Of a DNA stretch of 58,045 bases, positions 6,749-44,907 are shown one piece after another; the first letter of the stretch is position 1, and the number at the start of each line of letters is the position of its first letter. Origin of the DNA: a virus (lineage: Duplodnaviria > Caudoviricetes). Location: positions 1 to 58,045 of the IMG/VR virus record IMGVR_UViG_3300048839_001287. One strand, given 5' to 3'. The notes under the pieces were generated by a model that was given only the letters and a program-made list of their open reading frames with translations, was not told the origin of the DNA and made no database searches. The position numbers were made by a program, and so were the translations under genes.

Positions 6749-7182
6749 TTAGAATCATTCCCGATAAACTCCAATTAGGAGTTGATTACACTAAAACCAT
6801 GTCCTTCGATGACGCACAAAGATTAGCTGATAGACTCGGCCTTGATCTTGTGTGTGTCAACGAAGCCGCTTTAATATATACAATTACAAACGAAGAAAAG
6901 TTCCTTTATGCTGAAAAGAAAAGAAAGAAAAATAAGCCAAAGGAGCAAAAAACAATAAAAATTAAAGCGGGTATTTCTTCTGCTGATTTAGCTAGAAAAT
7001 TAGAAAATATACTAGAATTCAAAAAAGAAGGACATCCAGTAAAGATTGAGTGGTTCATTCCACAAAGAATGAAAAATGATGTTAATATTACAGCCTTCAA
7101 ATCTTTTTTAACTGTTTTATCTAGCCATTTTCTTGTCAAAATTCCAGAAACGATCGAGATAAAAACCATTTTATATATATGA
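6745..7182 (+). CDS. infC: Translation initiation factor IF3 homologue
   Basis: N-domain MSFDDAQRLADRLGLDLVCVN, basic linker YAEKKRKK, C-domain KTIKIKAGISSADLARKLENILEFKKEGHPVKI match the IF3 architecture; C-terminus looks shortened. Confidence 0.8.
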   Translation: MIRIIPDKLQLGVDYTKTMSFDDAQRLADRLGLDLVCVNEAALIYTITNEEKFLYAEKKRKKNKPKEQKTIKIKAGISSADLARKLENILEFKKEGHPVKIEWFIPQRMKNDVNITAFKSFLTVLSSHFLVKIPETIEIKTILYI

Positions 7183-14967: not shown

Positions 14968-14971
14968 AAAA

Positions 14972-23956: not shown

Positions 23957-26900
23957 CTATTTATCAAACAATTGAACTCCTGAAGAATAAATTTTATGTG
24001 CTTGAGTTGTGCCGGGTAAAAACTGCGCCGTTTCTCTAAGAATTCTAGAGTCTCCAGAGTACACACCAGATTTAATTTCATCTTCTCCTAACATTAATTT
24101 CCAAGTGGCATCCATTAGTTGTGTTGCATCACTGAATAATGACATGGCTGGAATTGGCCTCTTGATAAGCGTTTCCATCGCCGACGGATTAGAGTAAAAC
24201 AAAATGTCTGTTTGAACTCTAAGTAATTCATTAATCATAATATTCGTAAGGAAACTTCTGTCGTCATCGTCTTCTCCTTCTGTAGCATGTTTCAAAGCGG
24301 CTAAGGCTATTGTTGCAGTTATAAGAAGTAAAGTTTCATTGACGTTGGCAGATAAGTTTGCATAATCTACATCATCAAACTTATACTGTTCACCCATAAA
24401 AACTCCCTGCTGGTCTGCCTTTTTAATTACATGGCCTAACAACATTCTTCTAACTAACTCTCTACCCATCAGCATACTTTGCTTTGACCAATCTAGTCCT
24501 GTTCCATTAGCATAAGCAAATACACTAAAACCACTGCGATAACGCCCTTTTCTTTTATAACCCAAAGAATAATCCTCGTACTCTTTACCAAATCTATTGA
24601 AAAATCCTTCAAACATCCAGGTTCTAAATTGCGCTAACAATCTGCCTATAGAAGTTTTCTTTACCATCAACGGAGATTCTGGGTCATAGTTACCGTGGGT
24701 TTTCTTAATGGCCTGGTCTATCCTTACTTTAAAATCAAGAATAAAGTCTCTAGGCTCTTTTCCAAACTCAGCAGTATTCCATTTCCCATCATTTCCAAAA
24801 GCTTCCCACATTGGCCTTTGTTTACCATTATTATCAGTAATGGTTTCTTTCAACATCATAGCAATCATTACAGGGGCCTGGTTAATATACTCGCTTCGTT
24901 TTTGCATCTGGTAAGGACTAAGAAAACGCAGTCTGTTTATACCTAAAAGGGACTTTGAAGTAGCTTTATACATTTCATCAGAAGCATCCTTTAAAACATC
25001 CATTCTGTCCATAAGATTTCTAATCTTTAAAGCAGTAGGATGATTATATGAATTGAATGAAAAGTTTCTTAAAACACTTCTCATTACCATTGCCATAGCT
25101 TTTTTATATTCTTGTTCTCCAAATAGTCGTCCGTCTCCAGCCTCAATAATATTTGAAACAAGACCAAAACCCATGTTAGCTATACCAGATAAAATGTTCC
25201 ATCCCATTGACTTTAACTGCATCCAACGAATAGCACCATTGACCACACCAGAACCAGTAAGAACCCCACCAAGATATTCTAATTGGCCCTCAAGAATTTT
25301 CTTGTTACTATCATAAACAGACTTAATCATTAAGCCGTTCTTATAGTCTTCTTCGTTTTGAGTAAGAAGAGTTTCGATTTTTTTCTTTTGTGCTAACTCT
25401 TCACTAGTTAACAATTTCTTTTCACTCTTAAGTTCTACGTCTTGTTCGCGTAAACCATAAAACCTACGAAGAGCAAAATCAAGCATGTTTTTATAGTTAT
25501 CTAGGCCATCCTTTACAGCTAACTCTCCAGCAGTATTATGTAATGGTGCACCAGAAGAATTAGTATGCACTTCTTTTCTGGTTTGAAATTGTTGCTCAAG
25601 AAGTTTAACATAGTCTTCTATAGCTGCTTTATGGTGAAAAGAATAAGTAGTAAAAGCATACAGTTTAAGAATCTTACCCAAATCAAACGACTTGTTTTGT
25701 GCCATTTCATGTAAGATGTCTTTTTCCAAGGCTTTCTTTTCCAACACATTAGGAACACGTTTGTTAGTAAGTTGAAACTCAATAACAGCCGTTTTCATTT
25801 TTTGTTCTACCTCTGCTTTATGATTAGACATCATATGAAAACGAATATTTTTTTCGTCTTCTCCAGTAACAGGATCAATATCAGCAGTACTTGTGTCAGA
25901 TAAATCTTCACTACGAAGAATCTCTTTCATTGAATCCCATAATCCAATAGCAGCTAACTTGCCAGAATTATCAGAGCCAAGCTTTTCCACTAAGGTTTTT
26001 TTAATTGTAGGAATAGTATTCAAACGAATGTTTCTTCTTACGTCATGGGGCAAAAGAGCGTTCAATTGGTAAAGAGTTTCTGCCATAAAATCATAGAACT
26101 CAAAAAGATCATTATCCTTTTCTATAATTTCAAAGTTAGGATCATACCATTTAGTTTTTGCTCCTGTGGCACCATATTTTTTAGGTACAGCATAAGTTCT
26201 ATGTTGTCCTTGGATTCTTAATTTATTTCCCTTATGGTCTAAAATAATCTTATTATCTACTACTTTTGCTGCCGCCCAATAAGGAGAGTTGATTTTATCC
26301 CACTGGTCCATTAACTCGTCTTTTTCAGCAATAGTTGTTATCGGGTCACTATAAATACGGTCTTTGGCTAATTCATAATCAAACTCAAATTCCTCTACTT
26401 TCTTTTCCAGTCTTGCGATTAACTTGTCGTATCCCTTTTGTCCAAGAGCTTCTAATAAATCTTTCTTGTGTGTATCAACATCAACAGCAGTAAAAATTTC
26501 ATTGTTATAACGATAAACACCGGACTTTTTAGTTTTAGGAAAAAGCTTGCGAACATCAAACATGATTTCGTTATTTCTTCTCCATCTAAAATAAGCGTCC
26601 CAATGTTTAGGTTTGTTTGTTGATTCCGCTACTCTAAGTAATTTATCTTTTTCATCAAAATAATCTACAGAATAGCGCATCACCATATCTCCAGTCTCTT
26701 TTCCGTTAGAGTCTTTTTGTTTAAAGATAGAGTAAATATCTTTAGAGTTAATAGCCATCAACTTTGGACGAATCTTTTCTACAAGCTCATCGACCTTTTC
26801 ATTAATACTTGCAGAATCCATTCTTGCCTTTGTACTCTGATTTTTAATAGCAATGGCTAAAGACTGAAGCATAGGGTCTTTTGTTTCCGCCAAAGAAATA

Positions 26901-27964
26901 ACTTGCCCCATAATGCTGCCTATATCAGTAATAGCTTTGTAAATATCAGGAGTATTTAAAAGAGTGCCTGTATGTTTTTGTACAAAACCAGTAATAACAT
27001 CTTCCTGGTATTCTCTAAGTAAAGCAGAATAATGATCCATTCTTTGCTTATAATAAGCAAAGCCGTTTACCCAGTTTCCAGAAACACTTTGATAGCCATA
27101 TTTTAATCTATCAGACTGCAACTCAATATCATCAAATAAGATATGAGATTCTCCATCAGATAAATTAAAGTCACCTGCTTTTTGCCAGAATCGCATAATT
27201 CTTTGTAGATACGCAATTGTACCAACATCCATAGTTGGTTGCTTAAAGGCCCCTTCTACTTCTTTTAAATGCTCTTCAGCAAAATTTAACAGCGTTTCAA
27301 GATCTTTTGTTTTAGACAGTGCTTTAAGATTTTGATCTATATTTTCAATCTGATTGTATAGTTTTGCAATCTTAGCATCAATATTCTTTACGCCTACTTT
27401 ATTGTTTGCAGCTTTTGCGTCTTTTTTCTTTTGGAATTCTTGGCTTAATCTTTTATACAGTTCGCTTTTTTGTTTCTTAAAAGTTTCTCTTAAAGCGCCA
27501 AAACGATTCATTTTAGAAGAAGAAACGATAAGATCATCATACTCATATTCTCCGTCTCGATCAAAAGCTCCTTGAATTTTTACTACATTATCTTTAAGAA
27601 CAGGAACTTTATATTTGATCCCAGTAGGAGTTTGTATTTTTATTGGATTACCCAAAACAGGCAAATCAAATATCCTGTTTATCTTTTTAATTGACAATAC
27701 TCCTTGGGTATAAGAATTACTTCCAGATGCTTTTTGATTTACATAATAGTATCCTTTAGCATTATTCTTTCTGATACCTTGTTTTGCACTAACAGCTTCA
27801 TCAAGATAATGTTGCACAGTTCTATTGACGTCGATTCTTCCTTCTTCATTAAAAACAGGAGGAAGGGTAGTTCCGACTACCCCATCAAATTCTCCTCTTT
27901 CAAGTAACTGCTGCATTTCTTCAGCAGTATATTCTTTACCATTGTATGTATATGTACAAGCCAT
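23957..27964 (-). CDS. Giant virion cargo/ejection protein (1335 aa)
   Basis: Follows the virion RNAP gene; helical; HGNY...GRLLAQFRTW motif and a late hydrophobic helix, as in large crAss-like cargo proteins. Confidence 0.75.
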   Translation of the reverse strand: MACTYTYNGKEYTAEEMQQLLERGEFDGVVGTTLPPVFNEEGRIDVNRTVQHYLDEAVSAKQGIRKNNAKGYYYVNQKASGSNSYTQGVLSIKKINRIFDLPVLGNPIKIQTPTGIKYKVPVLKDNVVKIQGAFDRDGEYEYDDLIVSSSKMNRFGALRETFKKQKSELYKRLSQEFQKKKDAKAANNKVGVKNIDAKIAKLYNQIENIDQNLKALSKTKDLETLLNFAEEHLKEVEGAFKQPTMDVGTIAYLQRIMRFWQKAGDFNLSDGESHILFDDIELQSDRLKYGYQSVSGNWVNGFAYYKQRMDHYSALLREYQEDVITGFVQKHTGTLLNTPDIYKAITDIGSIMGQVISLAETKDPMLQSLAIAIKNQSTKARMDSASINEKVDELVEKIRPKLMAINSKDIYSIFKQKDSNGKETGDMVMRYSVDYFDEKDKLLRVAESTNKPKHWDAYFRWRRNNEIMFDVRKLFPKTKKSGVYRYNNEIFTAVDVDTHKKDLLEALGQKGYDKLIARLEKKVEEFEFDYELAKDRIYSDPITTIAEKDELMDQWDKINSPYWAAAKVVDNKIILDHKGNKLRIQGQHRTYAVPKKYGATGAKTKWYDPNFEIIEKDNDLFEFYDFMAETLYQLNALLPHDVRRNIRLNTIPTIKKTLVEKLGSDNSGKLAAIGLWDSMKEILRSEDLSDTSTADIDPVTGEDEKNIRFHMMSNHKAEVEQKMKTAVIEFQLTNKRVPNVLEKKALEKDILHEMAQNKSFDLGKILKLYAFTTYSFHHKAAIEDYVKLLEQQFQTRKEVHTNSSGAPLHNTAGELAVKDGLDNYKNMLDFALRRFYGLREQDVELKSEKKLLTSEELAQKKKIETLLTQNEEDYKNGLMIKSVYDSNKKILEGQLEYLGGVLTGSGVVNGAIRWMQLKSMGWNILSGIANMGFGLVSNIIEAGDGRLFGEQEYKKAMAMVMRSVLRNFSFNSYNHPTALKIRNLMDRMDVLKDASDEMYKATSKSLLGINRLRFLSPYQMQKRSEYINQAPVMIAMMLKETITDNNGKQRPMWEAFGNDGKWNTAEFGKEPRDFILDFKVRIDQAIKKTHGNYDPESPLMVKKTSIGRLLAQFRTWMFEGFFNRFGKEYEDYSLGYKRKGRYRSGFSVFAYANGTGLDWSKQSMLMGRELVRRMLLGHVIKKADQQGVFMGEQYKFDDVDYANLSANVNETLLLITATIALAALKHATEGEDDDDRSFLTNIMINELLRVQTDILFYSNPSAMETLIKRPIPAMSLFSDATQLMDATWKLMLGEDEIKSGVYSGDSRILRETAQFLPGTTQAHKIYSSGVQLFDK

Positions 27965-30900
27965 TAGTTACATTTTTTACTTATAATACCCTCTTTCATT
28001 AAAAGTTCCAGCTCTTTCATCATTGTCATTTGCATGTCAAGTCGTTCTGCGGCCTCTTGTTTTTTAACCATGGCTGTGTCGTATTCTGCTAATAAATCAG
28101 GTCTGTTTTTTGCTAACCACGGACGGGGGTTAGAAGTTACTGGAAAACCCATAACTTGTGGTAATTCATTATGAGGAATAAACACTTCTTCATTTTTAAA
28201 TATTAATCTCAAATGACCCCTTTTGGTTCCAGAAGCAACCATATCATCAGAAACATCAACAACCTGCTCTTTATTTTTATTGCTTAACATAACCAATTGC
28301 GACTTAGTTGTTTGATAAAACTTGCCAGTATTAACCCACTCTTTGCTGAAAACAACATTACCAGGAATAGGACCGGCTTGTATAAACATATCCATCATTT
28401 CCAAACCTGTGTAACCGTTTAAAGATTTAGTTTCAACATTTCGATAAGCAACTTTAAAACTTTTATCTGGATTGTTCTTAGCTGCGGCATATAGCTTTTT
28501 AATGTTGTTAACAATTTGTTGAGGAGGGATTGACTTAAGTCCCTTATTATCCTTTACTCGTAAATCTTTTGTGGGTAACGCATAAGCATTGCCTTGTAAC
28601 CCCTCTCCTTGCCCATACTTAGCACCAAACTTTTCAACAGCAATTTTAGCTGCGCCAGCCCCGTGCCTTCCTTCTGGATTACTACCAAAAACAAAAACTG
28701 TCTTAGCATCAGGAATTATATCTCCTTCATAGTATAAAACATTTGGATCAATATTGGCAGTAACTTGAGGTTGAGAATTAAACAACTCTCCAAAGGTATT
28801 ATAATCATTAACATCCTTTGCTACAGCGTCAACAGCTTCGTTTCCTTGAACACCAGAGTGGCCTCTTACCCAATAATAAGAAACTTTACCCGGCCTCTTC
28901 ATAATCTCATCAACCAACTTGTCAGCAATAATCCTAATGTTATTATCTCCAGCAAAGTTACCTTTCGAGAAAGCTTCATTACCATAGATTTTTTTATCTA
29001 GAAGAGCCTTATCAAGTTTAACATACTGGGAAACTTTTTGATGAATTTCTTCTTGCTGTTTTGGTGTAAGAGTTTTCCAAAAATCTTTATAACCTTTTTC
29101 CGAAAGATGTGTGTTGTCAGTAACTCTCATTATAATTCTGGAAAGAATCCAAAGTTGAACACCTTCTAAGTCTTGGTAGATTTGTACAAACTCGAAAGAA
29201 GGAGTATTCTGAATAGCTACAAGAGAACCATAAAGTTCCATAACACCATTAGAAGGATCGCCTTTTATTTCTTCGCCAAGTTCTTTAGACATCTTTTCTA
29301 AACCGCCCTCAAACTTGTTGTAGTGGCCTGAGATCGAATGTTCTTTATCCCCGTGCTTCAGATATACACCGAAGCCTAATTTGCCCGCCTGCTTAATATC
29401 AGAGCCATCTACGAAGACCTGAAGAGGTTTATCTGGGGAACTAAATCGTGCTTGTGTTTGAATTGGTTGTTTTTGTTCTGGCTGCTTAATGTTTGCTTCG
29501 ATACGACTCTCAATAAGAGTTGTAATATCCTTAACAACATTTGCAGAAACTTCATCAGAGAAAGTGATGCCAATAGCCTTCAACAAGTCACTAATCAATT
29601 CTACAAACTTCTCAAACAATCCTTTGTCATTTAACTTTTCTTGGAAAGCAGGAGAAGTCATTCCTAAAGCAAAAAATTCTCTTAAGTTATGGGCACCATA
29701 AAGTGCACTAGCCTCTTCTCTGGTTAAGTTATCCCCATTCGTTTTTATATAAGCCTTGACATCGGTATCTTGTGATAACCCATATTCATCAAGAACAGCT
29801 TTCCTATATGTTTCTTGAAGTTTACTTAATCGAGCTATAATCGTTTTTTGTTGTGCCGTTAACTGATTTGGATTAATCCTATACTTATGTATGAGGTCGG
29901 TAGTCAAGCCATGGGTTAATTCATGCAGAACAACTTCTTCCAGCATACTTCTATTTTCTGCTTTGGAAGCATTGATTATAATGTTAACCTTATTATTAGT
30001 GCCATAAGTAGTTCTGGCAAGATATGGTGCTGTCGGATCATCAATAACTGAAATAGACCACTCAATACCTGTCTTATCAATAATATCTAAAATATTTTCA
30101 GCATACTCACGATAACCAAGGTTAGTTGTAAGAGACTTAATATTTTCAAGAACATCTTTGATTACAGGTAAAGACCCGTCCCCCAATTCCAGTTCTTCTA
30201 TCAACTGATTATAGTTTGGTTCCGCACTGGGAGTTATAGCTTTAATAACTTTTGCGGGTGCGGGAGCTTTTTGACTATTTCTTACTTTCTTGGCATCTTT
30301 AAGTCTAGTGTCATTATTAACAACAGAAGAAGACTCTGTGTTCCAAGAGTATTCTCTTATAGAGGCCACGTGTTTTTTACCTATAAATCTTGTGCCAAGA
30401 ACGGGGATTCTTTCATATTCATTACCACCAACATAAGCAAACAGATGCCATCCTTGGGGGACATCTGGATCTTTAAAAGAAATAAATTCAGTTAGCCATT
30501 CTCCGCCTTCTCTTTCAACAGTATATTCTTCCAGTTGATCTGGATTTATAGCAATAAAGTCTACCTCTTTTAGTTTAGTAATAGGTTGTTGTTTTCCTTC
30601 TGGAGTAACTAAATTAAAATGTTCAACTTCTCCCCTAGTAATACTACCAGGATTATGCTGTACGAATTGTTTTGTATATTTGCTATACTGATATGGATTT
30701 TCTTTTTTCATTACAACTTCCACATCCTTGCTATTAGCAAATGTAATTTTATTCATCGCTTCAGCAAATCCTATCTTTTGCAGATATTCTACAGGAATAT
30801 ACTTTACATATTGAGAAGCTTCTTGTAAGCCACCAGTCATATAAGCATAAAGAATTAACTCCCTACCCAAGTCCTGGGTAGTCATTGTCTTTCCATTAAA

Positions 30901-33900
30901 TTCGCCAATTGGAATTGGATGTACAAGCAACTCCATGAAGGAAGCATACAGATTTAGTTCATCATAGTTTTCAGCAGTTGCAGCATTGAACGTAACAGTA
31001 CTAGGTAAATCTCCTTTTCCAAGTCTTGGTCTTAATCTATTTAAGAAAGCATTATTCTTGAAGAATTCCTGATCTTTAGATGCCAACAATATAGCCGCCA
31101 AAGAATAATGTTCAAACGTATCCTCTCCGGTTTTTACATCAAATAAAAGCCTGCGCCTTTCTACACTAGCTGATTCAGTACCAAGATTAAGGGCAGCCGC
31201 ATTTGAAAACAGATAGGCTTTCAAGTCTTTCCAAACTTTTTCATAGTAATCTGCCTTTGCTTGTGGCGGAAGATTCATTTTACCAGTAACCTGAAGAATC
31301 TCTTCCATCTGCACTTGAATAGCATCTTGGTGGAATGGGAACAATTGTCTCCACAATCTATTATTAAGCAACAAAGCATTCTTAGTTGCATGACCATTGA
31401 TAGTATTAAATTGAACATTTACATGAGCACCAAATCGAGTATAACGCCCAAGTACAGTATGCCCGTTAACTATAGGAGAAACATCTAAAGAATAAATAGA
31501 CTCTTCTTTAGTCATACTAGAAAATATTGATTTGCCAACACCAGCAGAGTCGGTATTGATAGCAGACTGAATCTTTTTCAACTCTATACCATATGGTTGA
31601 AGGAAAAGAAACTTAGCAAGAAGAGCCGCCTGTTTCTTTTTATAATCAGGATAAGCTTCCCCCTGTTCGATCATTGCCATCATTTCTGCTGACCCAATAT
31701 TATCAGACTGCTCTACTAGTTTATCAATAATCTGTTGCTTTTCTTCTGGACTGGCTTTTAAGAACGCTTGTCCATAGTATTGTCCAAATAATTCATTTCT
31801 CACTCTTATTGCAGCCCCAACTTCATATTCTTTCAAAGAGTTGGTCGCCTTACTTAGTTTGTCTACATACTCAAAAATAATATCTTGGGAAATAAATGGG
31901 GCAACAACAGATTCATCAAAACCAAGTTGATTAAGGATACGAATAACATCATACGTGTAGTTATTCACATTGATCTTATCCATGATCTGTTCCTTCTCAT
32001 TATCCACAGCAGCCGACTGATAAGCAGCAATTACATCAGACTTATAACGTTTAGTAGTACCAAGAACATATTTACCAGATAAATCACCGCTCGATCTAAT
32101 ATTACCAAACACAATTGGCATTGGTGGCAAACTTTCCTCATCAAAAATAAACTGCTCAGTTAAATAAATTTGTTCACCAGAAACAGCATAAGCATGTTGC
32201 ATTACGGAGTTAAGAACGGAGTCAAGTGAAAATACACCGACACCGCCAACTCTACCAGCCATAGCATTGATAAACTTTTGCTTTTGATATGAATCAGAAA
32301 GAGGAGAAAATATTTTATCACTGTGTTTTCTAGCTGCTCTAGCAGAACTAATTTTTGCAGCAAGATCTTTTCCGCCTTTTAAATCACCATAAGCAAGAGG
32401 GGCATGAATTTGTTGCTGAACCACATCCCTTGGATCTGACATTACTTCAAAGTGAATATCAATAATGTCATTCTGAATACTCTTCTTATAATTACTGATT
32501 TGCTTAACAATATCTTTTCGAAGTAATTCGGCTTCAACTTTATCTAAACCAGCTTCAACAGCAGCATTAATATAATCCATCAAGAAATCTCTTGATTCAT
32601 TAATACCCATATTGTATTTAAGAAAATCACTGAACCTATTAATTTTAAATGTCCCCTCTTCCCCATTAAACATGTGAGTATAGAAGTAATCATTTAAATC
32701 AACAACAGAGTTTGCCTTTTCAACTAAACCTTTTATTGGATCAGCAAAAGAAGCCTTCTTAATATAAGGAGATTTTTCTGCCTTTATAGTTTTAATTTCT
32801 TCTATTAATTGTTTTCTTCCTTTTATTGTTTCGGACATTTCTCCAATCTCATCATACAGTTTATTTATTGCATCATAGATTTTCTGAATTTCTCCGGATT
32901 TATTCTTATTGAACTGAATTAATACTTGCTTTAAAGCTTTTGCATATTGAATTTCTTGTTCATCCTTAATCCACGCACCAAGATGTTCGGCACCAGCCTT
33001 TTCATTTAAAGAAGAGGCGTTAATTCTTTTAAGTTTGGCAATATCATTATCCATTAAGTTTCTAGCATAAGCCTTCAACTTAATAAAGTCTACTTTATCT
33101 GGATTATAAAAAGAACCGGTACCAACCACATTACTAAAGAATGCTCGGAAAGATGTGAACATTCTATCGCCAGCCTTGAACCCAAGTTCAGGAACATATA
33201 AGTCTGAATTAATAGATGTTATAGAAAGAATTTTTTCCTTCTTTAATTTACCAAGAGTTGCTTTAAAATAATCTAGCTTATCATAAGCCTGTTTGAGTTT
33301 GCCGTTTTCTTTTGAGAATATTTCCTGATTATCATCAATCAAAGTTCTCAACTGAATATTTAGCAAATCCAACTTATTCTGAGATTGTTCACTTAATGCC
33401 GAGTAATTTGTATGATGCATATACAAGTAAACCTTATCTACGTCAAAGTCAGAACCCATCTGTACAACAAGTTCTTTTGGCGCCACAATCATGTCACCAT
33501 GTGCTTTAGGCAAAAATCCAACTATTTCAAAATAAGCCATAGAGTTATGGCCTTGAGTTGGAATACGGAAACCAAATGTTTTTAAAAGCTCCTTATCAAA
33601 TTTAGTTGTGTCAAGAAACTTCTTACCATTTTTTTCTACGATAAAACTATCAATCTTTAATGCTTTACCATTATTGTCCAGAAATTTAAAGGGCATAAGA
33701 ATTTGCCCAGGTTTAAATTCTCCGTTTTCTACACGCATTGGCTGTAATCCTAACATTGGATCAAAACCTTCTACAAAAGTAATGTCTGGAGAATCTTTCA
33801 TGGATTCCCACTCCTTGAATTTAAAACCTTCTTCAGTTGCAAGTACGAGAGATTTCCCCGGGAAAGTCATCTTTCTCACTCTATTATCTACAATACTATT

Positions 33901-36900
33901 TAATAAGGCTTGTATTCTATCTGAAGAACTAGACGCCCAAAGAGGCATAACAAAAGAACCGTCGTCTTTAATATCTAAAGCATAAATATCATTTAAAGGA
34001 TAGTTTCTTTTTACAGCTTCATCTATAAGTAAGTTTCTCAACTTTCTTACATCTATTGTACCGTTATTATAACCAAGTTCATATTCCAAATCTCTCGCGG
34101 CTAATTCAAAAAGCTTTTGATAGTTTTTATTATACCTATCAAATTTTTCTTTCATTCCCGGAAGATCGAGAATATTGTTGAATAACAACTTCCTTTCTTG
34201 TGTACCAACATTAATTTCTTTCTTGTCTGCATCGTAAGGAATTTCTTGCTGAATTCTTAAACCGGCCCTAGGCAAAGTACGAACAGCCAGGTGCAGTTTT
34301 TCTGAATTATTGGAAAGGTCTGCTATAACTTCAGAATCAAAGCCACCTTCAGGTTTAACAAGTGTAGGCATATTCTTGTTAGAAGGAGCCCCCACTTTTG
34401 CAGCAGTAAGAAAAGCAGCACGATCAATACCATTCTTTTCCATAAGAATACGCAGCTCATCTAATTCTGTTCCTTTCACCATTGAAGGGGAAAGAGCAAA
34501 AGAAGATGATTTAATATACACGCGCCTGTCAATATTATTATCAAGGTCGATAACATTATTTACATAAACCGGCTTTAATGGTTGAAACACCAATGATTTG
34601 AACAACTTATAATCATCTTCTGAGACAGACTTTTTAATAGCCTCATCATAGTAATGATTACCATTTGCAATCTCTTTGTCTATTACATTTTTAATAGTGT
34701 TATACAAAGCAACAGGCATTTTACCTGTATGCCTTAATATATACATGTGTTCAGTTAAAGTAGTAATCTCCTGTGCATCAGTAGAAGCTATTTTACGATA
34801 ATCACCCGCAGCAGCTAACCCAAGTTTTTCAAAGAAAGCAGCAACAGTTGAGGCCACTTTTCTGTCTTTTATAAACAACTGTTTAAAACTATTGTTCTCT
34901 TGATCGTTAAGATCATAACCGGGGGCCATGTCACCAGCAAGACGTTTACCAACGTTTAAGAAAGTATCACCAACCATAGCTATTCTTTCTTCATCAGTAA
35001 GCCTATTTCTAAAAACAGACTGGTCAATTTCTTCTGGTGTATATAAAGACTCGGTATCTTTAGCCAGTTGTTCTCTTCTTCCCTTTAAAACCCCAGATTT
35101 AAAAAACATTGCTGGATCACCAATAACCATTTGATACATATTGGCATTAGCAAGTAAATAGTTAGCCACATAATCTGTTGCCGCATATTTAACTTTATCA
35201 AGTCTGGTTTTAGCTAATGGGCTCATTGTAGAGTTCATATAAGCTAAATCCATAAAAGCAGGAGGAGTTTCTTCATCTATATAACCTATACCCAATTCTT
35301 TCCACTCTTCCATTTTTTCTTCTACCAACTTAGTAACGTGATTCTTAATCACTTCCTTCATGATAGAAACATATTCCGGTTTTTCTAAAAGATCAGATTT
35401 AAGGGTTCCATCTTCGTTAAACAACGCGGAAACATTATTCAACTCAGGAACCATATAGAACATAAACCAACCCTCTTCCATACCAGCGTCATTCACTTTA
35501 CCGCCTTTAGCTTGATAGTAATGTATACGATTAATTTCTGGAAGAATCATTTGCTCATACAGCAGATCAACCATATTCTGATCTATTGTGCCGTCTGGAG
35601 TAATATTAACTTTAGTCTTGATGGCTTCTACAAGCATCATGGTTGTCTTATCAGACATAGTTGGATACATGAAATAGACTTTACCGTTTCCTTTATTTTG
35701 AAAAGCAGTAATCTTAACTACTTCATGTTCAGCGCTATCCGCTTGTTTCATTTCAGGGCCATCAAAACCAAACTTTTGTTTGATTGCCTCCAGACCCATA
35801 TAATGTAAATCGAAAGCATCCATAAATGGGGTTTCTGGCTTTTCAAGGTCTGGGTTGTTTTTCTTTTCTTTTTGCCATTTATCCAAAGCATTGTGATCAG
35901 CGTATAGTTGATCAAGCCAAGAAGAATTCTGACTAAAGCTAATGTTGCTTAAGGCATCTACTATGCTTATATCTGTTTTCAAGTCCCTTACTCTTTTAAC
36001 ATTATATTTGTTAAGAGCATGAGAATAAACAGTTTCATTACCAGTTCTATGTGAATTGGATAAAACGTAAGAGGAATATTTCGCCTGAACTTCTGCTAAT
36101 CTTTTAAAGGCAGTTTCAGCCAATGGGTTGTTTACAGATATAGGCCTGTCTCCACGAACTTTAAAATTCTCATAAAGAAGTCTAAATGCACCGCCTTTAT
36201 TTTTAAATAGGCCAATAAATTTTCGCGGGGGCCACCCAACTATTTCTGCCCAAGCTTTATCGTCAAGAGTAATACCAACTTCTTCTAACCATTTTCTTCC
36301 TTCGGCTCTCATTTTTGGAAGAGAATTGGCATCACGAACAGCAAACCCCTTTTCCGGATTAATCCACTGTTCGTATTGATTCATCAACCTATTAGTAATC
36401 CTTGGATCAAGAATTAAGTCCGCAGGATCATTTGGATCGGGAACAGTAATTTTATTGTTGATAAAGTTATCATACCACCCATCTTCTATTTGTCTTGCTA
36501 TAGCATTTGCATTAGCATCATAAACAGAAAGATCATAACTACCATCTTTGTTCTGACTCCACATAATAAATTTCATGGAGACATAATGCTTAGACATAGC
36601 AACCACAAACTCTGTCTTTACTTCGTCAGAAGCATTGTCAAGTCTGTTGATGACATTCTGTAACCAGGGGTAGGCCTTTCTAAACTTTTTCAGATGTTTC
36701 ACCATCTGATCGTAGTCTGCCCTTTGTCCAGACAAAAGAGAAATAAGAGTATTGTAAACAGTATCAAATGGTACTCTTTCCACCATATCAGCCGTATATG
36801 CTTTCTTTGGTGCAATAGTGTTATTAGGAGTTATATAAGCATCCTCAATAAAATGGAAAAATCTTCTTAATCTACCAGACATTGTAACTTTTCCGTCGAT

Positions 36901-37566
36901 CTTGAAAGTAGCGTTATCTTCATAACTGCGTTTTTCCATTGATGCCGTATCGTCCAACTCTGTTTCAGATTCTTCTACAGTAATAATATTTAAAGCATTA
37001 ATTTTTTGCTTGGCTAGTCCTGTTAATTGATCAAAGTTTTTAAGGATCTTTTTTATTTCAACAGCTTGTGCTGCATCAGTATCTCTTACTTCTGAAAGTT
37101 TTGCACGGAAATAATCTTTTAATTTTCCAAATAACTCTTCTTCAGAATACTTTTTTTGTTTTCCTTCAATAACATTCTTTACTACAGCATCAGCCATAAA
37201 ATCCACAACAACCTGTTGTTTTGCAACACCAAGATCGGGTATAATTAACTGTGCTAAATTAGTATGTTCTAATTCTTTTTGTACCGCGTCTGACATGCTT
37301 GGGAGCATATCATCTGCTTGCATATCCATAAAACTAAGTACAGACTCAATGGAAGGTTCTGAATAAACAGTCAGTCCATCGACCTGTTCTTTTGTCCAAT
37401 CCCCACCAATATAACCCATAAAGGAGGGAGAATAGGATAACGTGTAAGCAGCATTAGCCGCCGACACGTTACCTTGAAAATGGTCTAACAAACCAGCAAA
37501 TAGTTCGCTTTGAACTTCTTGCCCAGCATATCGACCATGCGTAGGAGTAAATACTTTACAATTCAT
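27964..37566 (-). CDS. Virion-packaged two-barrel RNA polymerase polyprotein (3200 aa) with zincin, RNase H and macro-like accessory domains
   Basis: TDAQ, QPLKP, AAKVG, LRIQQ, GFRIPTQGHNSM and catalytic GSDFDVDK (33436-33450); HELTH near 29910; RNase H motifs 28813-29424; FVFGSN..GRHGAGAA near 28690. Confidence 0.92.
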   Translation of the reverse strand: MNCKVFTPTHGRYAGQEVQSELFAGLLDHFQGNVSAANAAYTLSYSPSFMGYIGGDWTKEQVDGLTVYSEPSIESVLSFMDMQADDMLPSMSDAVQKELEHTNLAQLIIPDLGVAKQQVVVDFMADAVVKNVIEGKQKKYSEEELFGKLKDYFRAKLSEVRDTDAAQAVEIKKILKNFDQLTGLAKQKINALNIITVEESETELDDTASMEKRSYEDNATFKIDGKVTMSGRLRRFFHFIEDAYITPNNTIAPKKAYTADMVERVPFDTVYNTLISLLSGQRADYDQMVKHLKKFRKAYPWLQNVINRLDNASDEVKTEFVVAMSKHYVSMKFIMWSQNKDGSYDLSVYDANANAIARQIEDGWYDNFINNKITVPDPNDPADLILDPRITNRLMNQYEQWINPEKGFAVRDANSLPKMRAEGRKWLEEVGITLDDKAWAEIVGWPPRKFIGLFKNKGGAFRLLYENFKVRGDRPISVNNPLAETAFKRLAEVQAKYSSYVLSNSHRTGNETVYSHALNKYNVKRVRDLKTDISIVDALSNISFSQNSSWLDQLYADHNALDKWQKEKKNNPDLEKPETPFMDAFDLHYMGLEAIKQKFGFDGPEMKQADSAEHEVVKITAFQNKGNGKVYFMYPTMSDKTTMMLVEAIKTKVNITPDGTIDQNMVDLLYEQMILPEINRIHYYQAKGGKVNDAGMEEGWFMFYMVPELNNVSALFNEDGTLKSDLLEKPEYVSIMKEVIKNHVTKLVEEKMEEWKELGIGYIDEETPPAFMDLAYMNSTMSPLAKTRLDKVKYAATDYVANYLLANANMYQMVIGDPAMFFKSGVLKGRREQLAKDTESLYTPEEIDQSVFRNRLTDEERIAMVGDTFLNVGKRLAGDMAPGYDLNDQENNSFKQLFIKDRKVASTVAAFFEKLGLAAAGDYRKIASTDAQEITTLTEHMYILRHTGKMPVALYNTIKNVIDKEIANGNHYYDEAIKKSVSEDDYKLFKSLVFQPLKPVYVNNVIDLDNNIDRRVYIKSSSFALSPSMVKGTELDELRILMEKNGIDRAAFLTAAKVGAPSNKNMPTLVKPEGGFDSEVIADLSNNSEKLHLAVRTLPRAGLRIQQEIPYDADKKEINVGTQERKLLFNNILDLPGMKEKFDRYNKNYQKLFELAARDLEYELGYNNGTIDVRKLRNLLIDEAVKRNYPLNDIYALDIKDDGSFVMPLWASSSSDRIQALLNSIVDNRVRKMTFPGKSLVLATEEGFKFKEWESMKDSPDITFVEGFDPMLGLQPMRVENGEFKPGQILMPFKFLDNNGKALKIDSFIVEKNGKKFLDTTKFDKELLKTFGFRIPTQGHNSMAYFEIVGFLPKAHGDMIVAPKELVVQMGSDFDVDKVYLYMHHTNYSALSEQSQNKLDLLNIQLRTLIDDNQEIFSKENGKLKQAYDKLDYFKATLGKLKKEKILSITSINSDLYVPELGFKAGDRMFTSFRAFFSNVVGTGSFYNPDKVDFIKLKAYARNLMDNDIAKLKRINASSLNEKAGAEHLGAWIKDEQEIQYAKALKQVLIQFNKNKSGEIQKIYDAINKLYDEIGEMSETIKGRKQLIEEIKTIKAEKSPYIKKASFADPIKGLVEKANSVVDLNDYFYTHMFNGEEGTFKINRFSDFLKYNMGINESRDFLMDYINAAVEAGLDKVEAELLRKDIVKQISNYKKSIQNDIIDIHFEVMSDPRDVVQQQIHAPLAYGDLKGGKDLAAKISSARAARKHSDKIFSPLSDSYQKQKFINAMAGRVGGVGVFSLDSVLNSVMQHAYAVSGEQIYLTEQFIFDEESLPPMPIVFGNIRSSGDLSGKYVLGTTKRYKSDVIAAYQSAAVDNEKEQIMDKINVNNYTYDVIRILNQLGFDESVVAPFISQDIIFEYVDKLSKATNSLKEYEVGAAIRVRNELFGQYYGQAFLKASPEEKQQIIDKLVEQSDNIGSAEMMAMIEQGEAYPDYKKKQAALLAKFLFLQPYGIELKKIQSAINTDSAGVGKSIFSSMTKEESIYSLDVSPIVNGHTVLGRYTRFGAHVNVQFNTINGHATKNALLLNNRLWRQLFPFHQDAIQVQMEEILQVTGKMNLPPQAKADYYEKVWKDLKAYLFSNAAALNLGTESASVERRRLLFDVKTGEDTFEHYSLAAILLASKDQEFFKNNAFLNRLRPRLGKGDLPSTVTFNAATAENYDELNLYASFMELLVHPIPIGEFNGKTMTTQDLGRELILYAYMTGGLQEASQYVKYIPVEYLQKIGFAEAMNKITFANSKDVEVVMKKENPYQYSKYTKQFVQHNPGSITRGEVEHFNLVTPEGKQQPITKLKEVDFIAINPDQLEEYTVEREGGEWLTEFISFKDPDVPQGWHLFAYVGGNEYERIPVLGTRFIGKKHVASIREYSWNTESSSVVNNDTRLKDAKKVRNSQKAPAPAKVIKAITPSAEPNYNQLIEELELGDGSLPVIKDVLENIKSLTTNLGYREYAENILDIIDKTGIEWSISVIDDPTAPYLARTTYGTNNKVNIIINASKAENRSMLEEVVLHELTHGLTTDLIHKYRINPNQLTAQQKTIIARLSKLQETYRKAVLDEYGLSQDTDVKAYIKTNGDNLTREEASALYGAHNLREFFALGMTSPAFQEKLNDKGLFEKFVELISDLLKAIGITFSDEVSANVVKDITTLIESRIEANIKQPEQKQPIQTQARFSSPDKPLQVFVDGSDIKQAGKLGFGVYLKHGDKEHSISGHYNKFEGGLEKMSKELGEEIKGDPSNGVMELYGSLVAIQNTPSFEFVQIYQDLEGVQLWILSRIIMRVTDNTHLSEKGYKDFWKTLTPKQQEEIHQKVSQYVKLDKALLDKKIYGNEAFSKGNFAGDNNIRIIADKLVDEIMKRPGKVSYYWVRGHSGVQGNEAVDAVAKDVNDYNTFGELFNSQPQVTANIDPNVLYYEGDIIPDAKTVFVFGSNPEGRHGAGAAKIAVEKFGAKYGQGEGLQGNAYALPTKDLRVKDNKGLKSIPPQQIVNNIKKLYAAAKNNPDKSFKVAYRNVETKSLNGYTGLEMMDMFIQAGPIPGNVVFSKEWVNTGKFYQTTKSQLVMLSNKNKEQVVDVSDDMVASGTKRGHLRLIFKNEEVFIPHNELPQVMGFPVTSNPRPWLAKNRPDLLAEYDTAMVKKQEAAERLDMQMTMMKELELLMKEGIISKKCN

Positions 37567-40500
37567 ATTTTACATTTATTATTTACTTTATTCCTTGTTT
37601 GCCCCATAACAATCATATCATCTTCCCAATCAATCATTTGCTCATCAGATGGATTTAATCCTAAATCTCCAAGAATATCACCTGATTTTGTCTGTATTTC
37701 TTCGTCTGGAAAATCTGGGTCAGGATTTTCATTATCCTCATTCATTGCCCACTCTCCATCATGTTCATTTACCCATTTAATGAAAGCGTTTATATCTGCA
37801 TCAACATCAGGATTAATTCCCATTTCATTTGAATATTCGATGTACTGGCCAAAATCTCCAACAGATTTATATCTGAGGGTAGAATAGTATCTATCATCTG
37901 GAAAAATTAACTCTTCTTCTTGTTTCGCCAATCTTATCTCTGCTAATCCCCTTTCTAAAAAGATCTGCCTGGCGGCTTCTCTCTGAACAGCAGTATACTC
38001 ACCAAGACCATCAACAATGTTAGTAATCTCTTTATCAGACATACCAATCATGTTGTTCATTTCTTTAGTAACCTTGGTTCTATTTGCTTTCGTGTCCTTA
38101 ACAAACTCTAAACCTTTGAATGCCTCTTTAATTGTTGGGGGAGCAACATCGGGTTCAACACTTACTTTCTGGGTAGTGGTTGGAGTAGAAGTCTCCTCTT
38201 CCATTACCACCTTATATTCAATAGAAGGTTGATAAACAAAAGTAAAAGTGTTTCCAATTTGTACTGGTCTTAATCTTGTTTGTAATCCCATTTTGATGAA
38301 ATCAACATAGGAGCCGTCCTCATTTAATTTCTTTGTAAAAAGTTTACCTTCATTCGTAGTAATAAGAACGACAGGGGATTTTTTGTTTTCAGTTAATCGA
38401 CTGATAGAAACATTCAATTTCATTGCCTTAATATGATCTATCAAAAGAGGGCGAAGAGTTTTCTTTACTTCCGCAGGAGTTTCTTTTGATATAGAAAACG
38501 TTTTATCTGCACCACCAACAGCAAAATCAACAGAGTTACCACTAAAGTTTACAAATCTATGTGAAGAACTTAGAGACTCTCCAGCAGTCTTTACAAAAGC
38601 ATCTAACGGAGACATAAAGCCCCTTTCTTTAAAATCATCAAAGATTTTGTCTGGAGTAAAATTATATAAGAAATGTCCAAGATAAGCATAAAGGCCGGCT
38701 TCGGTTGTAATATCAATCCCCATAACATCAATAATCTCATCAATATATGCCTGTATATTAGCATCATATTCTCCTTTATGAGTTGCAATAAAGATTGCAT
38801 TTACCAGAGCCTCTGCCGTTTCGTTATCTATATTTCCAGGCCTTAATGTAAAACCATTCCAACCCCCTTTAGATGGCACAAACAAATAAGGAATACCAGG
38901 ATAAAGTTTCTCTTCATTATTGATTTTTTTAACATCAGTAACATTGTGTCCAACAATATTACTTTCTTTCATAATACCAATCTTTAACGAATCATTATTT
39001 TCAGAAGGGACTAATTCCTCTAGAGTTTGAAAATCTTCTTCTATTTTAAATACGCCACCATATTTATCTGTAATAACGATTTTCTTAGCTCTGCCTGCTA
39101 AAATATTTCTTCTAATATCCATTAACTTTTGAGCGTCTTCCTGCATACCAGCGGCGTCGTTAGCAACACGAAGATTGTTAATAAACTCAATATTATGAAG
39201 ATAAGCAATCACTTTACCATTGTGCTTTACAGCAATAGGAACCATTGCAGTAACAACATCGTTTGCATTGTCAAACCCAAAATGTTTTGCATAACGGTCT
39301 TTGTTGTTTTTAATTTCTCCCCAAGTAGTTGTTTCATTCACTCCACCAGGAAGATAAGTTGGCACGTTATTATCATCAACAACCTCTAATTCAAACTCTG
39401 CTCCAGGATATATAATACTATTATCGAGAATAGTTTCATAGTCATCTATAAATTCATCTGTATCTACTCTGAAAATCTTACCGCCTTCTACACCAGGAAC
39501 CACATCTGCATATACTCTATGTAAGTAAGCAAGAAAATTGTGGGCTGTAAAATGTCTGGCATAATCAGCTTCATAAGGATACTGTGTAAGTTTAGGACTA
39601 TCTTGTAATCCTTTTTCAGCAGCCTCGTCGTAATATTCTTCACCAGCCAAAAGCTTTTCCTCTGTTAGCATAGATTCAGGAATAGCAGCATCATATACTG
39701 TATCTACATTTTCAAGTAATTGCGCAATCTCTTCATCAGATAAATAAATATCTTCAAACTTAATAGCTGATACTTGAGCGGCTACTTCTTGGTCTATTTG
39801 AAAAGTTGGAGCATAAAAAGATTTGATATAAGGAAAAATCTTTTCCATTACTTTTTTGTCTACAGTTTTAGAGATTTCTCTCATTACTGCATAGAAAGCT
39901 CCTGGGCTATTAAAATCGTAATCAGGATTATCTTCTAAGATAAGCTCTGCTGTCTTTTTAAACAGTTCTGTAGAAGCTTGCATAACTTGTAGCTTCTTGG
40001 CAGAACTCATGACAGCAGCCATATCATCTCCTTCCTCATTAATAAGGTTAAAGATTTCCATAGCAGATGAGCGAATACCGGCTTGTTGAGCACTTAGATC
40101 ATTACCCAAAGAAACAACAGTTCCTTTTTGCATCAATACCCATTCTCCATCTTGATTTACATATTGAGCAGGGGAAACAACTTTAAACTTATCACCGTTT
40201 GTGAGAGGATCTTTTATGTCAAAAGCCTGTCCCAACGTATTAAATTCTTCTGTATAAGTATAACCATCGACAGCATTATCAGAAGGATAAACGTACATGA
40301 GATTTCCTTCACGAGTTCCAGTATAAGGCATTTCATTACCAGGAATTGTTTCTTGAGTTGTAATAGAACCATCTGGATTAACGTAGGCAAAAGAAGTCTT
40401 AATCTCTGGTTCAGGAGAAACTTCTTTTTCCTGCTCCAACATCGCATCAATATCTTCATTTTTTGCCTGATTTGTTACAACAGGAGCTTCTGTTTTAGGT

Positions 40501-42791: not shown

Positions 42792-44907
42792 TATTTAAAA
42801 GTTCTTCTTTCGTAAAACTACCATAATCAATCCATTTTCCACCGGATTGAATTTTTACATCAAAGCCGTCTGTAGCTGCGTTATATTCAGATTTAAATTT
42901 AGCCAATACGGGCAACCCGTCTTGAGTTTTTGCCGGCCCATCAAAATACTCGGTGTCCCCCAAAGAATATGCAGCAGCTAATGTTCTATTAGCAAAATAC
43001 TGCGGCTTCATTTTTACTGTTGGAGACGGTTCTACATAAAACTGATCTTCCCCTATTTGAATAACATCTGTACCATATTCCATTGGAGAAGCTACTGTGT
43101 AGTTTGTACCGGCATAAGAAATAGGGCCGGAATCTAGTTTTTTTCTAAACTCTGCACCATCTATAATTGTTGTGTTTCCTTTTCTTTCGGTGCCTCTAAT
43201 TTTTCTACCAATTAATATGGGATTTGTTATTGGTGTTTTATCATCCCTTTTTACAGATTCGTCTGCCCAAATTTCTTCCCATTCTTTCTGTGCTTTAGCA
43301 TCATTAACAACATTATAATATTGTTGTCCGGCAGCATTTAGTTTACTTTCTGAGTCTTGAACCACAAGATTTAGCCAATAATTATCGTCTTTATCATCTA
43401 TTGGAATACCAGCTTCTTGATGACGAATTTTTTGGTTTTCTATTCCTCTTTGTATTTCAGGAGCATCGGCCGTAAGAACATCTCTGTTAAAGGTTCTATT
43501 CCAAGCCTCTAAAATTTTTAGAGAAATAGATGCCCCAATTGTAGAAAATGTTCCTCGTCCTGCCAAAGCATATGAAGCAGCGGCCATTGCATCAGCAGCT
43601 TCGCTGGTGTTTAACTTAAGATACCCAGATTTAACTTTAGCATTCATTATACCTTGTAGAGGATTGTCTTCAAAAGGCATTTGTCTTGCATAAGAAGGTG
43701 TTAAATCTCCAATTGTAAGTTGTTTCTCTAAACTTTTGCTGTATGCAGCAAGATCAAAAGAATCCATTTTCATGTCTTGATCTTTCTTTGTAATATTATC
43801 TTGCTCATAAAAAGTAGCAGCAGCAGAAACAGCGCCACGTATTTTATCTTGAACATACCTATTTTGAATATCAGAGACAGATTGTTGTTCAAAATTTAAC
43901 GGAGTAAGACTTTCTTTTACAAAACTAACTGCTTGTTCTGCCATCTTTTTTGTTTGTTCACCAATTACACCATCAACAGCTACAACATTATCTCCAAGGA
44001 CTTTATTTATATAATGTTGATATTCTTTCGTTGATTTAAATTTAGAAGGATCAGTAAGCTTACCAACAATTTCTCCTTTTCTTTCAAGTAAGTCCGAATT
44101 AGCTTCAAACGTTTGATTTCTTAAGTCTTCATTATAAGCAGCCAATTCTGTGTCTCCCATACGATATGTTTGTAGTCCAGCTTCAAACCCAAGATAATCT
44201 TGTACGCGGGGGTTATTCATCACAAACGGAGTAACTGCTTCAACGATATCTTCTTGGGTTACGCGTTCTCTCATAGAAGAATCCTTAAACCAATACCCGC
44301 CCTTTTTATACCAGCCAGTTGTTTGCGCTAACTTCTCAAGAGGAACTTCCTTTGCAAGCTTTAATGCTTCTTCGTTGACATCAATATACTTAGGAATTCT
44401 TGCTTGTCCAAATTGATTGTAGACTGTATTGCCAAAAGCATCCTGTTTACTGTTCTGCATTACATTTCCATACTTATACAAAAGCTGATCTTTAGCGGCA
44501 TCTTTTAAATAGGAGGGGAGATCAGAATCGTCTACTTTTTTAAATTCTTCCTGAGCTTTTACATAAGCAGTTTGCATTGCACCAATGTCTCCGGCAGGAC
44601 CAAATCGTCTTCCAAATTTTCTAACTTCTCTTTCAATTTCTCCCGCAGACTTTGCCAAGTCTCCTTGATTCATTTGTAAAAGATTGTCTACAAGATCAAT
44701 TTGGTCTTGTCTAGCCTTAGCAGCAAAATCGGTATCTACAGAAAGATTTTGAAATTGTTTCTCTTCTAGTTCCTGTAACTGTGCTTTACTTTGATCATAT
44801 CTCCCCTGTTGTGCTCCAAGCATTGTAACAAGTTCTTCAAAAGGAACTTGAATGGGAGTACCAATTTGTATTGGGTTTAATCCTACATCGAATCTATTAG
44901 TTGCCAT
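42778..44907 (-). CDS. Virion cargo protein (709 aa) with possible peptidoglycan-binding motif
   Basis: MATNRFD...VPFEEL N-terminus, position among cargo genes, internal YQHYIN...VDGVIGEQT. Confidence 0.65.
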   Translation of the reverse strand: MATNRFDVGLNPIQIGTPIQVPFEELVTMLGAQQGRYDQSKAQLQELEEKQFQNLSVDTDFAAKARQDQIDLVDNLLQMNQGDLAKSAGEIEREVRKFGRRFGPAGDIGAMQTAYVKAQEEFKKVDDSDLPSYLKDAAKDQLLYKYGNVMQNSKQDAFGNTVYNQFGQARIPKYIDVNEEALKLAKEVPLEKLAQTTGWYKKGGYWFKDSSMRERVTQEDIVEAVTPFVMNNPRVQDYLGFEAGLQTYRMGDTELAAYNEDLRNQTFEANSDLLERKGEIVGKLTDPSKFKSTKEYQHYINKVLGDNVVAVDGVIGEQTKKMAEQAVSFVKESLTPLNFEQQSVSDIQNRYVQDKIRGAVSAAATFYEQDNITKKDQDMKMDSFDLAAYSKSLEKQLTIGDLTPSYARQMPFEDNPLQGIMNAKVKSGYLKLNTSEAADAMAAASYALAGRGTFSTIGASISLKILEAWNRTFNRDVLTADAPEIQRGIENQKIRHQEAGIPIDDKDDNYWLNLVVQDSESKLNAAGQQYYNVVNDAKAQKEWEEIWADESVKRDDKTPITNPILIGRKIRGTERKGNTTIIDGAEFRKKLDSGPISYAGTNYTVASPMEYGTDVIQIGEDQFYVEPSPTVKMKPQYFANRTLAAAYSLGDTEYFDGPAKTQDGLPVLAKFKSEYNAATDGFDVKIQSGGKWIDYGSFTKEELLNIGNE

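Follow-up and report, generated by a model that had tools for sequence, protein, structure and literature searches.

The giant cargo genes of the window and their cysteines

The viral record IMGVR_UViG_3300048839_001287 of IMG/VR, a DNA of 58,045 nucleotides (nt) that was analyzed over its whole length and is referred to here as the window, contains the late block of a crAss-like phage, in which a muzzle-type gene, genes for CrAss_Ring_1 and CrAss_Ring_2 and cargo genes are followed by three giant open reading frames (ORFs). ORFs were called on both strands, and the giant ones, which we name p1, p2, and p3, lie on the minus strand. The subject of the present study is the cysteine (Cys) residues of their products, which are found only at the termini that face each other across the two gene junctions. 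The three genes and the four Cys codons are as follows.

37563..42785, minus strand: p1, first giant cargo protein, 1740 amino acids (aa) from the ATG at 42785
27964..37566, minus strand: p2, predicted virion RNA polymerase, 3200 aa, its only Cys being residues 3 and 3199
23957..27964, minus strand: p3, last giant cargo protein, 1335 aa, with Cys3 as its sole Cys
37572..37574, minus strand: TGT codon of the sole p1 Cys, residue 1740 of 1742 (..NNKCKI and stop), third from the C-terminal end
37558..37560, minus strand: TGT codon of p2 Cys3 (MNCKV), near the N-terminal end of p2
27970..27972, minus strand: TGT codon of p2 Cys3199 (..SKKCN and stop), second from the C-terminal end
27956..27958, minus strand: TGT codon of p3 Cys3 (MACTY), the sole Cys of p3

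The length of 1742 aa for p1 refers to an alternative start, a TTG at 42791, two codons upstream of the ATG. An earlier reading of this DNA, called the original prediction below, had claimed that the three giant proteins hold four Cys, all at facing termini and none at the free ends, and a recount of the translations agrees with it: p1, p2, and p3 together have 4 Cys in 6275 residues, one per junction-facing terminus, without any additional internal Cys, and neither the free N-terminal end of p1 nor the free C-terminal end of p3 (..VQLFDK) has one. Two smaller ORFs at cargo positions, of 709 and 545 aa, had been described as Cys-free and do contain 0 Cys each. The background is given by the 33 remaining ORFs of the window, with 117 Cys in 9745 aa (1.20%), and the five cargo ORFs contain 4 Cys in 7529 aa versus 90.4 expected (binomial P about 1e-33). 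The chance that 4 uniformly placed Cys would land one per 3-residue junction window is about 1.3e-12. The neighboring tail proteins, on the other hand, had been called Cys-rich, which was an overstatement because their Cys content is ordinary, 1.06% in the muzzle-like protein and 2.1–2.6% in the ring proteins against the background of 1.20%.

Other features of the block that are needed below are listed here.

33436..33450, minus strand: catalytic DFDVD motif, p2 residues 1373–1377, from alignment A1 with 25 homologues
28813..29427, minus strand: RNase H accessory domain within p2, residues 2714–2918 (PF00075, E 4e-11)
42778..44907, minus strand: Cys-free 709-aa ORF at the position of the smaller crAss001 cargo proteins (gp45/gp46)
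44897..46534, minus strand: Cys-free 545-aa ORF, also at a cargo position
46531..50505, minus strand: muzzle-like tail protein, 1324 aa, 14 Cys (phrog_15100, E 1e-153; weak match to PF25729, crAss_MUZ_C)

Judged from its sequence, p2 is a crAss-like virion two-barrel RNA polymerase of the phi14:2 gp66 type, having the DFDxD motif, similarity to the structure 6vr4_A, and the position in the late block that are found in this type. Among the 25 p2 homologues of alignment A1, D1373 and F1374 are invariant and D1375 and D1377 are nearly invariant, and the sole sequence match of p2 in the PDB is 6vr4_A, the phi14:2 polymerase (E 1.8e-22, p2 residues 979–1384). The protein also matches phrog_16227 (virion structural protein), and tblastn with p2 found 135 phage records, including phi14:2 g066 and crAss001 gp50. 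The counterparts of p1 are crAss001 gp47 and phi14:2 g067, and those of p3 are crAss001 gp49 and phi14:2 g065. In addition to the RNase H domain, the C-terminal third of p2 holds a phrog_2072 domain at residues 2945–3079 (accessory region 27964–28700 + 28813–29427); both accessory domains were undetected in most relatives when BLAST matches were mapped along the proteins (hereafter, the BLAST map). The 709-aa and 545-aa ORFs gave no match to Pfam or PHROG families. At the same position in related loci, behind the tail genes and ahead of the giant chain, most ORFs are Cys-free, as judged from their listing without a tally.

Paired cysteines at gene splits and their loss in fused proteins

Related loci were collected by scanning IMG/VR with alignment A1, which confirmed 437 relatives, whereas searches with single terminal or core pieces gave only 0, 2, and 0 loci; 60 loci were examined. 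ORFs were called mechanically from the first ATG, a junction was defined as consecutive plus-strand ORFs each of at least 1000 aa, and Cys was scored in the last 10 residues of the upstream product and in the first 8 residues of the downstream product. Both Cys are present at 61 of the 65 junctions thus obtained, and every junction that has the upstream C-terminal Cys also has its downstream partner (61/61). Among the 4 exceptional junctions, 3 have neither Cys and 1 has the downstream Cys only. The apparent split in locus L009 consists of an in-frame TAG with an ATG two codons later (10154–10162) and is therefore not a real split; the TAG itself may represent read-through, recoding, or a sequencing error. 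The other two junctions with neither Cys (L029 and L055) are read, from the order of their ORFs, as the boundary between a smaller cargo-position ORF and the chain. The junction with only the downstream Cys (L056) has other genes between its two ORFs, and its p2 carries a CGC motif at −25/−23. The free ends of the chains behave differently from the junctions, since Cys was found at 0 of 50 free N-terminal ends and at 2 of 53 free C-terminal ends (L019 and L057), both of which are cut junctions, the next ORF being a cut or short one that begins with MAC. Among ORFs of 300–999 aa, taken as controls, Cys occurred in the N-terminal window of 4 out of 84 and in the C-terminal window of 2 out of 110. 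In total, the chains contain 193 Cys in 318,799 residues, of which 125 are in the terminal windows and 68 are internal (0.021%). The 61 junctions represent 55 distinct sequences, or 34 clusters at 35% identity over 80 flanking residues.

The terminal Cys are retained down to 22–30% protein identity, so that the conservation and co-occurrence in homologues on which the original prediction depended were both observed. Homologues of p3 with identities of 22–67% begin with MAC, MSIAC, MNVC, or MDKC and are otherwise nearly Cys-free; the Cys is at position 3–5 in P0002–P0006 and P0008, and M1, C3, and Y5 are the sole invariant columns of the p3 alignment (A4). The p1 homologues P0130–P0132 all terminate with ..NKCK[IL], and the N terminus MNCK of p2 is kept in P0010–P0012 at 37–63% identity. 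The stored gene call for the window p2 (P0009) begins 49 codons inside this conserved start and so lacks Cys3 (37420–37566). Nearly all of the 120 listed p2 homologues (2000–5500 aa) have a single Cys in the last 1–7 residues; where the start coincides with the p2 N terminus, the sequence opens with MxC or MxxC, and where the C-terminal end is of the p3 type (..Q[IV]FDK), the C-terminal Cys is lacking. The C-terminal Cys is followed by an overhang of 0–2 residues in 134 of 149 non-redundant ends, with a full range of 0–8, and the N-terminal Cys is at position 3–6 in all 80 non-redundant ends, i.e., with 2–5 residues ahead of it. Except for a Lys-rich stretch before the C-terminal Cys, the residues near the junction Cys vary widely, and megablast and tblastn searches of the phage collection with the junction-flanking parts gave no match. 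Because the flanks are otherwise so variable, the persistence of the Cys points to a role of the thiol itself.

Gene calls in GenBank for reference phages gave the following Cys positions, where negative numbers are counted from the C-terminal end.

crAss001: gp47, single Cys at −3; gp50, Cys at 5, 1334, and −9; gp49, single Cys at 5
DAC15: layout as in crAss001, with the p1 gene on the opposite strand from p2
phi14:2: g067, sole Cys as the last residue; g066, Cys at 3 and 2179 only; g065, Cys at 3 only
Fpv20: gp33, single Cys at −2; gp34, Cys at 3 and 1461
crAss002: gp32, single Cys at −2; gp33, MSC at an internal Met
crAssphage LMMB (L068, MT006214): one protein ends with ..SFSCM and the next starts with MSCGN, with a gap of 130 nt

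All six phages, crAss001, DAC15, phi14:2, crAss002, crAssphage LMMB, and Fpv20, follow the rule that Cys are placed at the junctions. Internal Cys are more frequent in crAssphage LMMB, with 3 in 1957 aa and 8 in 4070 aa. The annotated start of crAss002 gp33 (L066, MN917146, 10572–10680) looks 32 codons too early in comparison with the MSC start.

Proteins in which the giant genes are naturally fused allowed the dependence of the Cys on the gene split to be evaluated. In many relatives, the p1 region is fused ahead of the polymerase, and such p1+p2 fusions retain the C-terminal Cys only, as seen in the BLAST map. The p2+p3 fusions P0019 and P0060 retain the N-terminal Cys only, and the triple fusions P0017, P0049, P0053, P0057, P0059, P0062, P0112, and P0119 (4738–5418 aa) contain zero Cys; P0040, in the BLAST map of fusions, has one internal Cys. 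When 171 proteins containing the polymerase core were scored, 114 of the 115 with a fused upstream part had no N-terminal Cys (the exception, P0016, starts with MAC at another cut), while 45 of the 49 that start at or inside p2 had it, and the four that did not (P0034, P0068, P0070, and P0109) have internal starts and are probably truncated calls. On the other side, Cys was found in the last 10 residues of 131 of the 139 proteins that end before p3, and was missing from the C terminus of 26 of the 27 that are fused to p3, the exception being P0067, which ends inside p3. The eight proteins that end before p3 without such a Cys are those of the L056/L059/L062 clade, P0014, P0052, and P0127, and P0021 and P0029, which are considered in the next section. 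On a FastTree phylogeny of the polymerase core, the state of the N-side split changes at least 20 times, and 15 supported independent contrasts were available for this side, of which about 11 went the same way, 0 the opposite way, and about 4 were unchanged (sign test p about 0.001). The loss of junction Cys upon gene fusion, which the original prediction had anticipated, is thus borne out both by this scoring and by the Cys-free triple fusions.

The same pattern is seen where genes are cut at other sites. In many phages the polymerase itself is cut ~200 residues before DFDxD, into halves of which the first ends with ..FKKC(D) and the second begins with MAC[EQ]YFVNG, and the start of the second half can be aligned with an interior stretch of unsplit polymerases (..GFxYxGKxYTGKEL..) that has no Cys. 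Cuts inside p3 (L062 and P0067) carry Cys as well, with the pair ..KTCK / MDCTY in L062. Moreover, an N-terminal module of the CPNKNSKEWK type (CxNK[NS]xxE[WF]KxL) is doubled within one protein in L022 (10558–16272) and L023 (18186–22457), where the copy at the N-terminal end has the Cys and the internal copy (~residue 566) has Asn instead. No BLAST match extended across a pseudo-junction in fused relatives, and the parts of the window proteins that flank the junctions have diverged too far for an alignment with fused forms; a location within unsplit proteins was obtained for two elements only, the mid-polymerase split and the CPNKNS-type module. Taken together, Cys has been purged from the ejected cargo of crAss-like phages, one Cys is kept on each side of real splits, and it is lost where there is no split.

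In L010 (11305–11805) and L025 (13228–13704), a ferritin gene (158–166 aa, PF00210) stands exactly between the two polymerase halves. The inserted gene is a ferritin and not an Erv-type oxidase. A gap of similar size, ~480–505 nt, is present at this split in L009, L012, L016, L018, L020, L024, L026, L031, L035, and L039–L041. The presence of a foreign gene within one class of split, together with the frequency of inteins and introns in crAss-like genomes reported in Yutin 2021 (PMC7886860), would fit the idea that the Cys are non-functional scars of gene splitting, such as the Cys1/Cys+1 of a decayed intein or of another mobile insert. This idea is, however, very improbable in our opinion, because the Cys persist at 22–30% identity while the other Cys of the chains have been purged to 0.021%, because they are the sole invariant feature of otherwise variable termini, and because overhangs of 0–8 and 2–5 residues leave no intein domain. 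A functional split intein was rejected likewise, given the same short overhangs and the lack of N-intein and C-intein domains.

A further possibility arose from the nucleotide sequence. At each junction of the window, the two Cys codons are 14 nt apart, and the stop and start codons overlap as ATGA and TAATG. The original prediction had drawn attention to the equal spacing of the TGT codons and had mentioned UGU-to-UGU ribosomal bypass as an alternative. The 14-nt spacing does hold at both window junctions, which also have in common the 18-nt pattern TGTAAnnnnTGnnTTGTA, with only these two exact matches in the window (0.66 expected at up to 1 mismatch), as might be expected if a bypass or a translational coupling motif were selected at the nucleotide level and Cys were a by-product. 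The spacing is, however, not conserved in relatives. Across the 61 junctions with both Cys it is 12–50, about 500 (about 496–520), or 1520 nt, and the codon pairs are TGT/TGT at 49, mixed at 10, and TGC/TGC at 2. In addition, the p1 gene of crAss001 (gp47) is on the strand opposite gp50, and that of DAC15 is likewise on the strand opposite p2, and yet both keep the single C-terminal Cys. Such variable spacing and opposite-strand partners exclude ribosomal bypass and a DNA motif, for which we see practically no chance, and, with the nucleotide-level explanations failing, the 18-nt pattern of the window is regarded as incidental.

A proposed head-to-tail disulfide chain

The best reading of these observations is that the junction Cys probably form a reducible, head-to-tail interchain disulfide that replaces a lost peptide bond. 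In some relatives, the cargo block is one polypeptide of about 5000–7300 residues, and the three genes of the window encode consecutive pieces of this Crassvirales cargo block, including the virion RNA polymerase. The two thiols at each junction would join as an interchain disulfide once the virion meets an oxidizing milieu, and what is packaged and what threads through the tail might be a single covalent chain, p1-S-S-p2-S-S-p3, in which the short overhangs beside the Cys would keep the joint thin. The reducing cytoplasm of the host would open the bridges to free the polymerase and its partners. In this way, the disulfide could functionally substitute for the peptide bond that was lost at the gene split. 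The intersubunit disulfides in the tail and portal vertex of crAss001, described in Bayfield 2023 (PMC10172136), indicate that proteins of such virions do become oxidized, and are therefore counted in favor of the disulfide. A model of p3 residues 1–200 made with AF2 (AlphaFold2), of moderate confidence (mean predicted local distance difference test score, pLDDT, 70.7; predicted template modeling score, pTM, 0.54), places Cys3 directly before a β-hairpin at residues 4–13, which is followed by a helix; a Foldseek search of the PDB with this model gave no match at E ≤ 0.001, and no fold was assigned.

Several points weigh against the disulfide chain. Because phage assembly takes place in the reducing cytoplasm and the gut habitat is anoxic, the oxidation is an assumption. 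Many of the loci are related, and the raw counts of junctions therefore overstate their independence. On the C side, 4 supported contrasts were available, with 2 the same way, 0 opposite, and 2 unchanged (p 0.5), and this comparison is underpowered. In P0014, P0052, and P0127 the Cys sits 63–66 residues from the end, before a small appended domain, and P0021 and P0029, which may be incomplete, have no terminal Cys at all. The p2 of the L056/L059/L062 clade is Cys-free over its last 10 residues; the CGC motif, at −25/−23 in L056, is found at −29/−27 in L062, and L059 has none within 60 residues. Finally, the C1 cargo protein of crAssphage LMMB (861 aa, 1555–4140) ends with ..GGKQSCR, with its sole Cys at −2 and no partner Cys at the N terminus of the protein that follows. 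Two side observations concern the same proteins: the segment of ~65 aa appended behind the C-side Cys in P0014, P0052, and P0127 is conserved (..KGGKWKxIKDLKGY..), and two or three extra genes lie between the polymerase and p3 in L056 (9704–19403), L059 (9521–20369), and L062 (9674–23181).

Other partners or other sites of bond formation can also be envisaged. If the terminal Cys formed a bond with a structural virion protein, such as the portal, the capsid interior, or the tail, or with another copy of the cargo protein itself, the disulfides known from tail and portal-vertex proteins of crAss001 (PMC10172136) would provide a precedent, and the tail proteins of the window, being of normal Cys content, could serve as partners. 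Such a bond would, however, leave unexplained the Cys-less free ends (0/50 N-terminal; 2/53 C-terminal, both cut junctions), the two-sidedness of the junctions (61/61 with any upstream Cys), and the fact that fused forms need no Cys, and we consider it improbable. A less remote, though still unlikely, alternative is that the junction pair is functional and the bridge is formed by thiol oxidases of the host in its periplasm, and not before ejection, or that the two thiols share a metal ion. It draws on the same co-occurrence and fusion-loss data as the disulfide chain. The disulfide-forming enzymes of the periplasm are the rationale offered for Cys suppression in N4-like phages (PMC11445570), and a Pfam scan of the 32 other ORFs of the window revealed no phage-encoded thiol oxidase or thioredoxin, whether thioredoxin-like or Erv-like. 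The metal version is weakened by the single Cys that each chain could contribute, which makes a poor metal site, and the periplasmic version by the polymerase having to get to the cytoplasm and by the disulfides already present in the crAss001 virion tail (PMC10172136).

The disulfide chain put forward in the original prediction is thus partly supported: every comparative consequence that had been named for it, i.e., the Cys count, conservation, co-occurrence, and loss in fusions, was observed, and the bond itself stays a proposal. A broader version would apply to the Crassvirales as a whole, such that a disulfide always makes up for the splitting of the gene for the giant ejected polyprotein, the cargo leaves as one thread of ~5000–7000 residues, reduction separates the pieces and activates the polymerase, and the fused forms need proteolysis instead. 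We hold this generalization to be conceivable, with somewhat more doubt than confidence.

No matter how the Cys act, their pairing at gene splits has practical consequences. The crAss-like phages, the most abundant human gut viruses, have to store and inject a protein load of about 700 kDa, to which the polymerase responsible for the start of infection belongs. The conserved Cys pair offers a testable hypothesis on the order in which the cargo is ejected, on its stoichiometry, and on how the polymerase is activated, and the cultured phages crAss001, DAC15, crAss002, phi14:2, and Fpv20 would allow it to be tested. For annotation, the rule predicts true MxC starts, as for crAss002 gp33 and the window p2, and tells a real split apart from an in-frame stop with read-through. 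More broadly, the system might be an example of gene fission that is offset by a covalent link made after translation.

Two observations were made outside the late block. A replication-side module at window positions 13413–21468 on the plus strand contains a cluster of amidotransferase and ligase genes, encoding a glutamine amidotransferase, a phiEco32-like COOH-NH2 ligase, and an amidoligase (Pfam families PF07722, PF14395, PF13522, and PF12224). A 155-aa ORF at 6715–7182, also on the plus strand, has a match (E 3e-7) to PF05198, the family of the IF-3 (translation initiation factor) N-terminal domain.

Comparison with known systems

The block of the window is homologous to g067/g066/g065 of phi14:2 and to gp47/gp50/gp49 of crAss001, with the DFDxD motif and the same gene order. 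According to PMC10172136, crAss001 virions hold gp45, gp46, gp47, gp49, and gp50, identified there by mass spectrometry, as cargo, which must partly unfold to exit via the tail. The products of phi14:2 g067/g066/g065 are noted in GenBank to have been detected in virions by mass spectrometry, and a preprint (Drobysheva 2020, 10.1101/2020.03.07.982082) describes gp66 and its two neighbors as virion proteins, states that the three occur as one fused polyprotein in some phages, and supposes that the fused polyprotein is cleaved. Packaging and ejection are thus known for crAss001 and phi14:2 only. The word "cysteine" has 0 occurrences in the accessible texts of PMC10172136, the preprint 10.1101/2020.03.07.982082, and PMC7886860, in which the rule of junction Cys is not mentioned, and no description of terminal or junction Cys in these proteins was found in the literature, with subscription-only papers and supplements outside the search. 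Disulfides are present in the same kind of virion, in the tail and at the portal vertex of crAss001, but they link structural proteins of normal Cys content and not cargo.

The suppression of Cys in ejected proteins is itself already known from N4-like phages, while junction Cys pairs were not found described. In the Schitoviridae, to which these phages belong, the ejection proteins contain 0.00075% Cys versus 0.865% in the proteome (PMC11445570), and the rationale given there is their passage through the periplasm, which holds disulfide-forming enzymes. In our own count, N4 gp50 (3500 aa), gp51, and gp52 contain 0 Cys each. The crAss-like block thus resembles that of N4-like phages (N4 gp50/51/52 and DEV gp71/72/73) in that a giant virion polymerase and its co-ejected proteins are nearly Cys-free. 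Unlike p2 of the window, the N4-type polymerase is encoded by one gene and has no terminal Cys; being a single-gene product, it leaves nothing to join. The two polymerase families are not known to be related, the N4-type enzyme being T7-like and the crAss-like enzyme of the two-barrel type.

Split inteins likewise restore the continuity of split-gene products with the use of junction Cys, but intein domains are absent here. A parallel in logic is found in two-chain (A-B) toxins, the chains of which are connected by an interchain disulfide that is reduced after translocation. The toxin chains arise from the nicking of one polypeptide, whereas those of the window come from separate genes; the two systems have no homology, and the bond in the phage is one that we propose from sequence comparisons. 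What they would share is a tether, covalent but reducible, by which the chains stay joined outside the cell and come apart in the cytosol.

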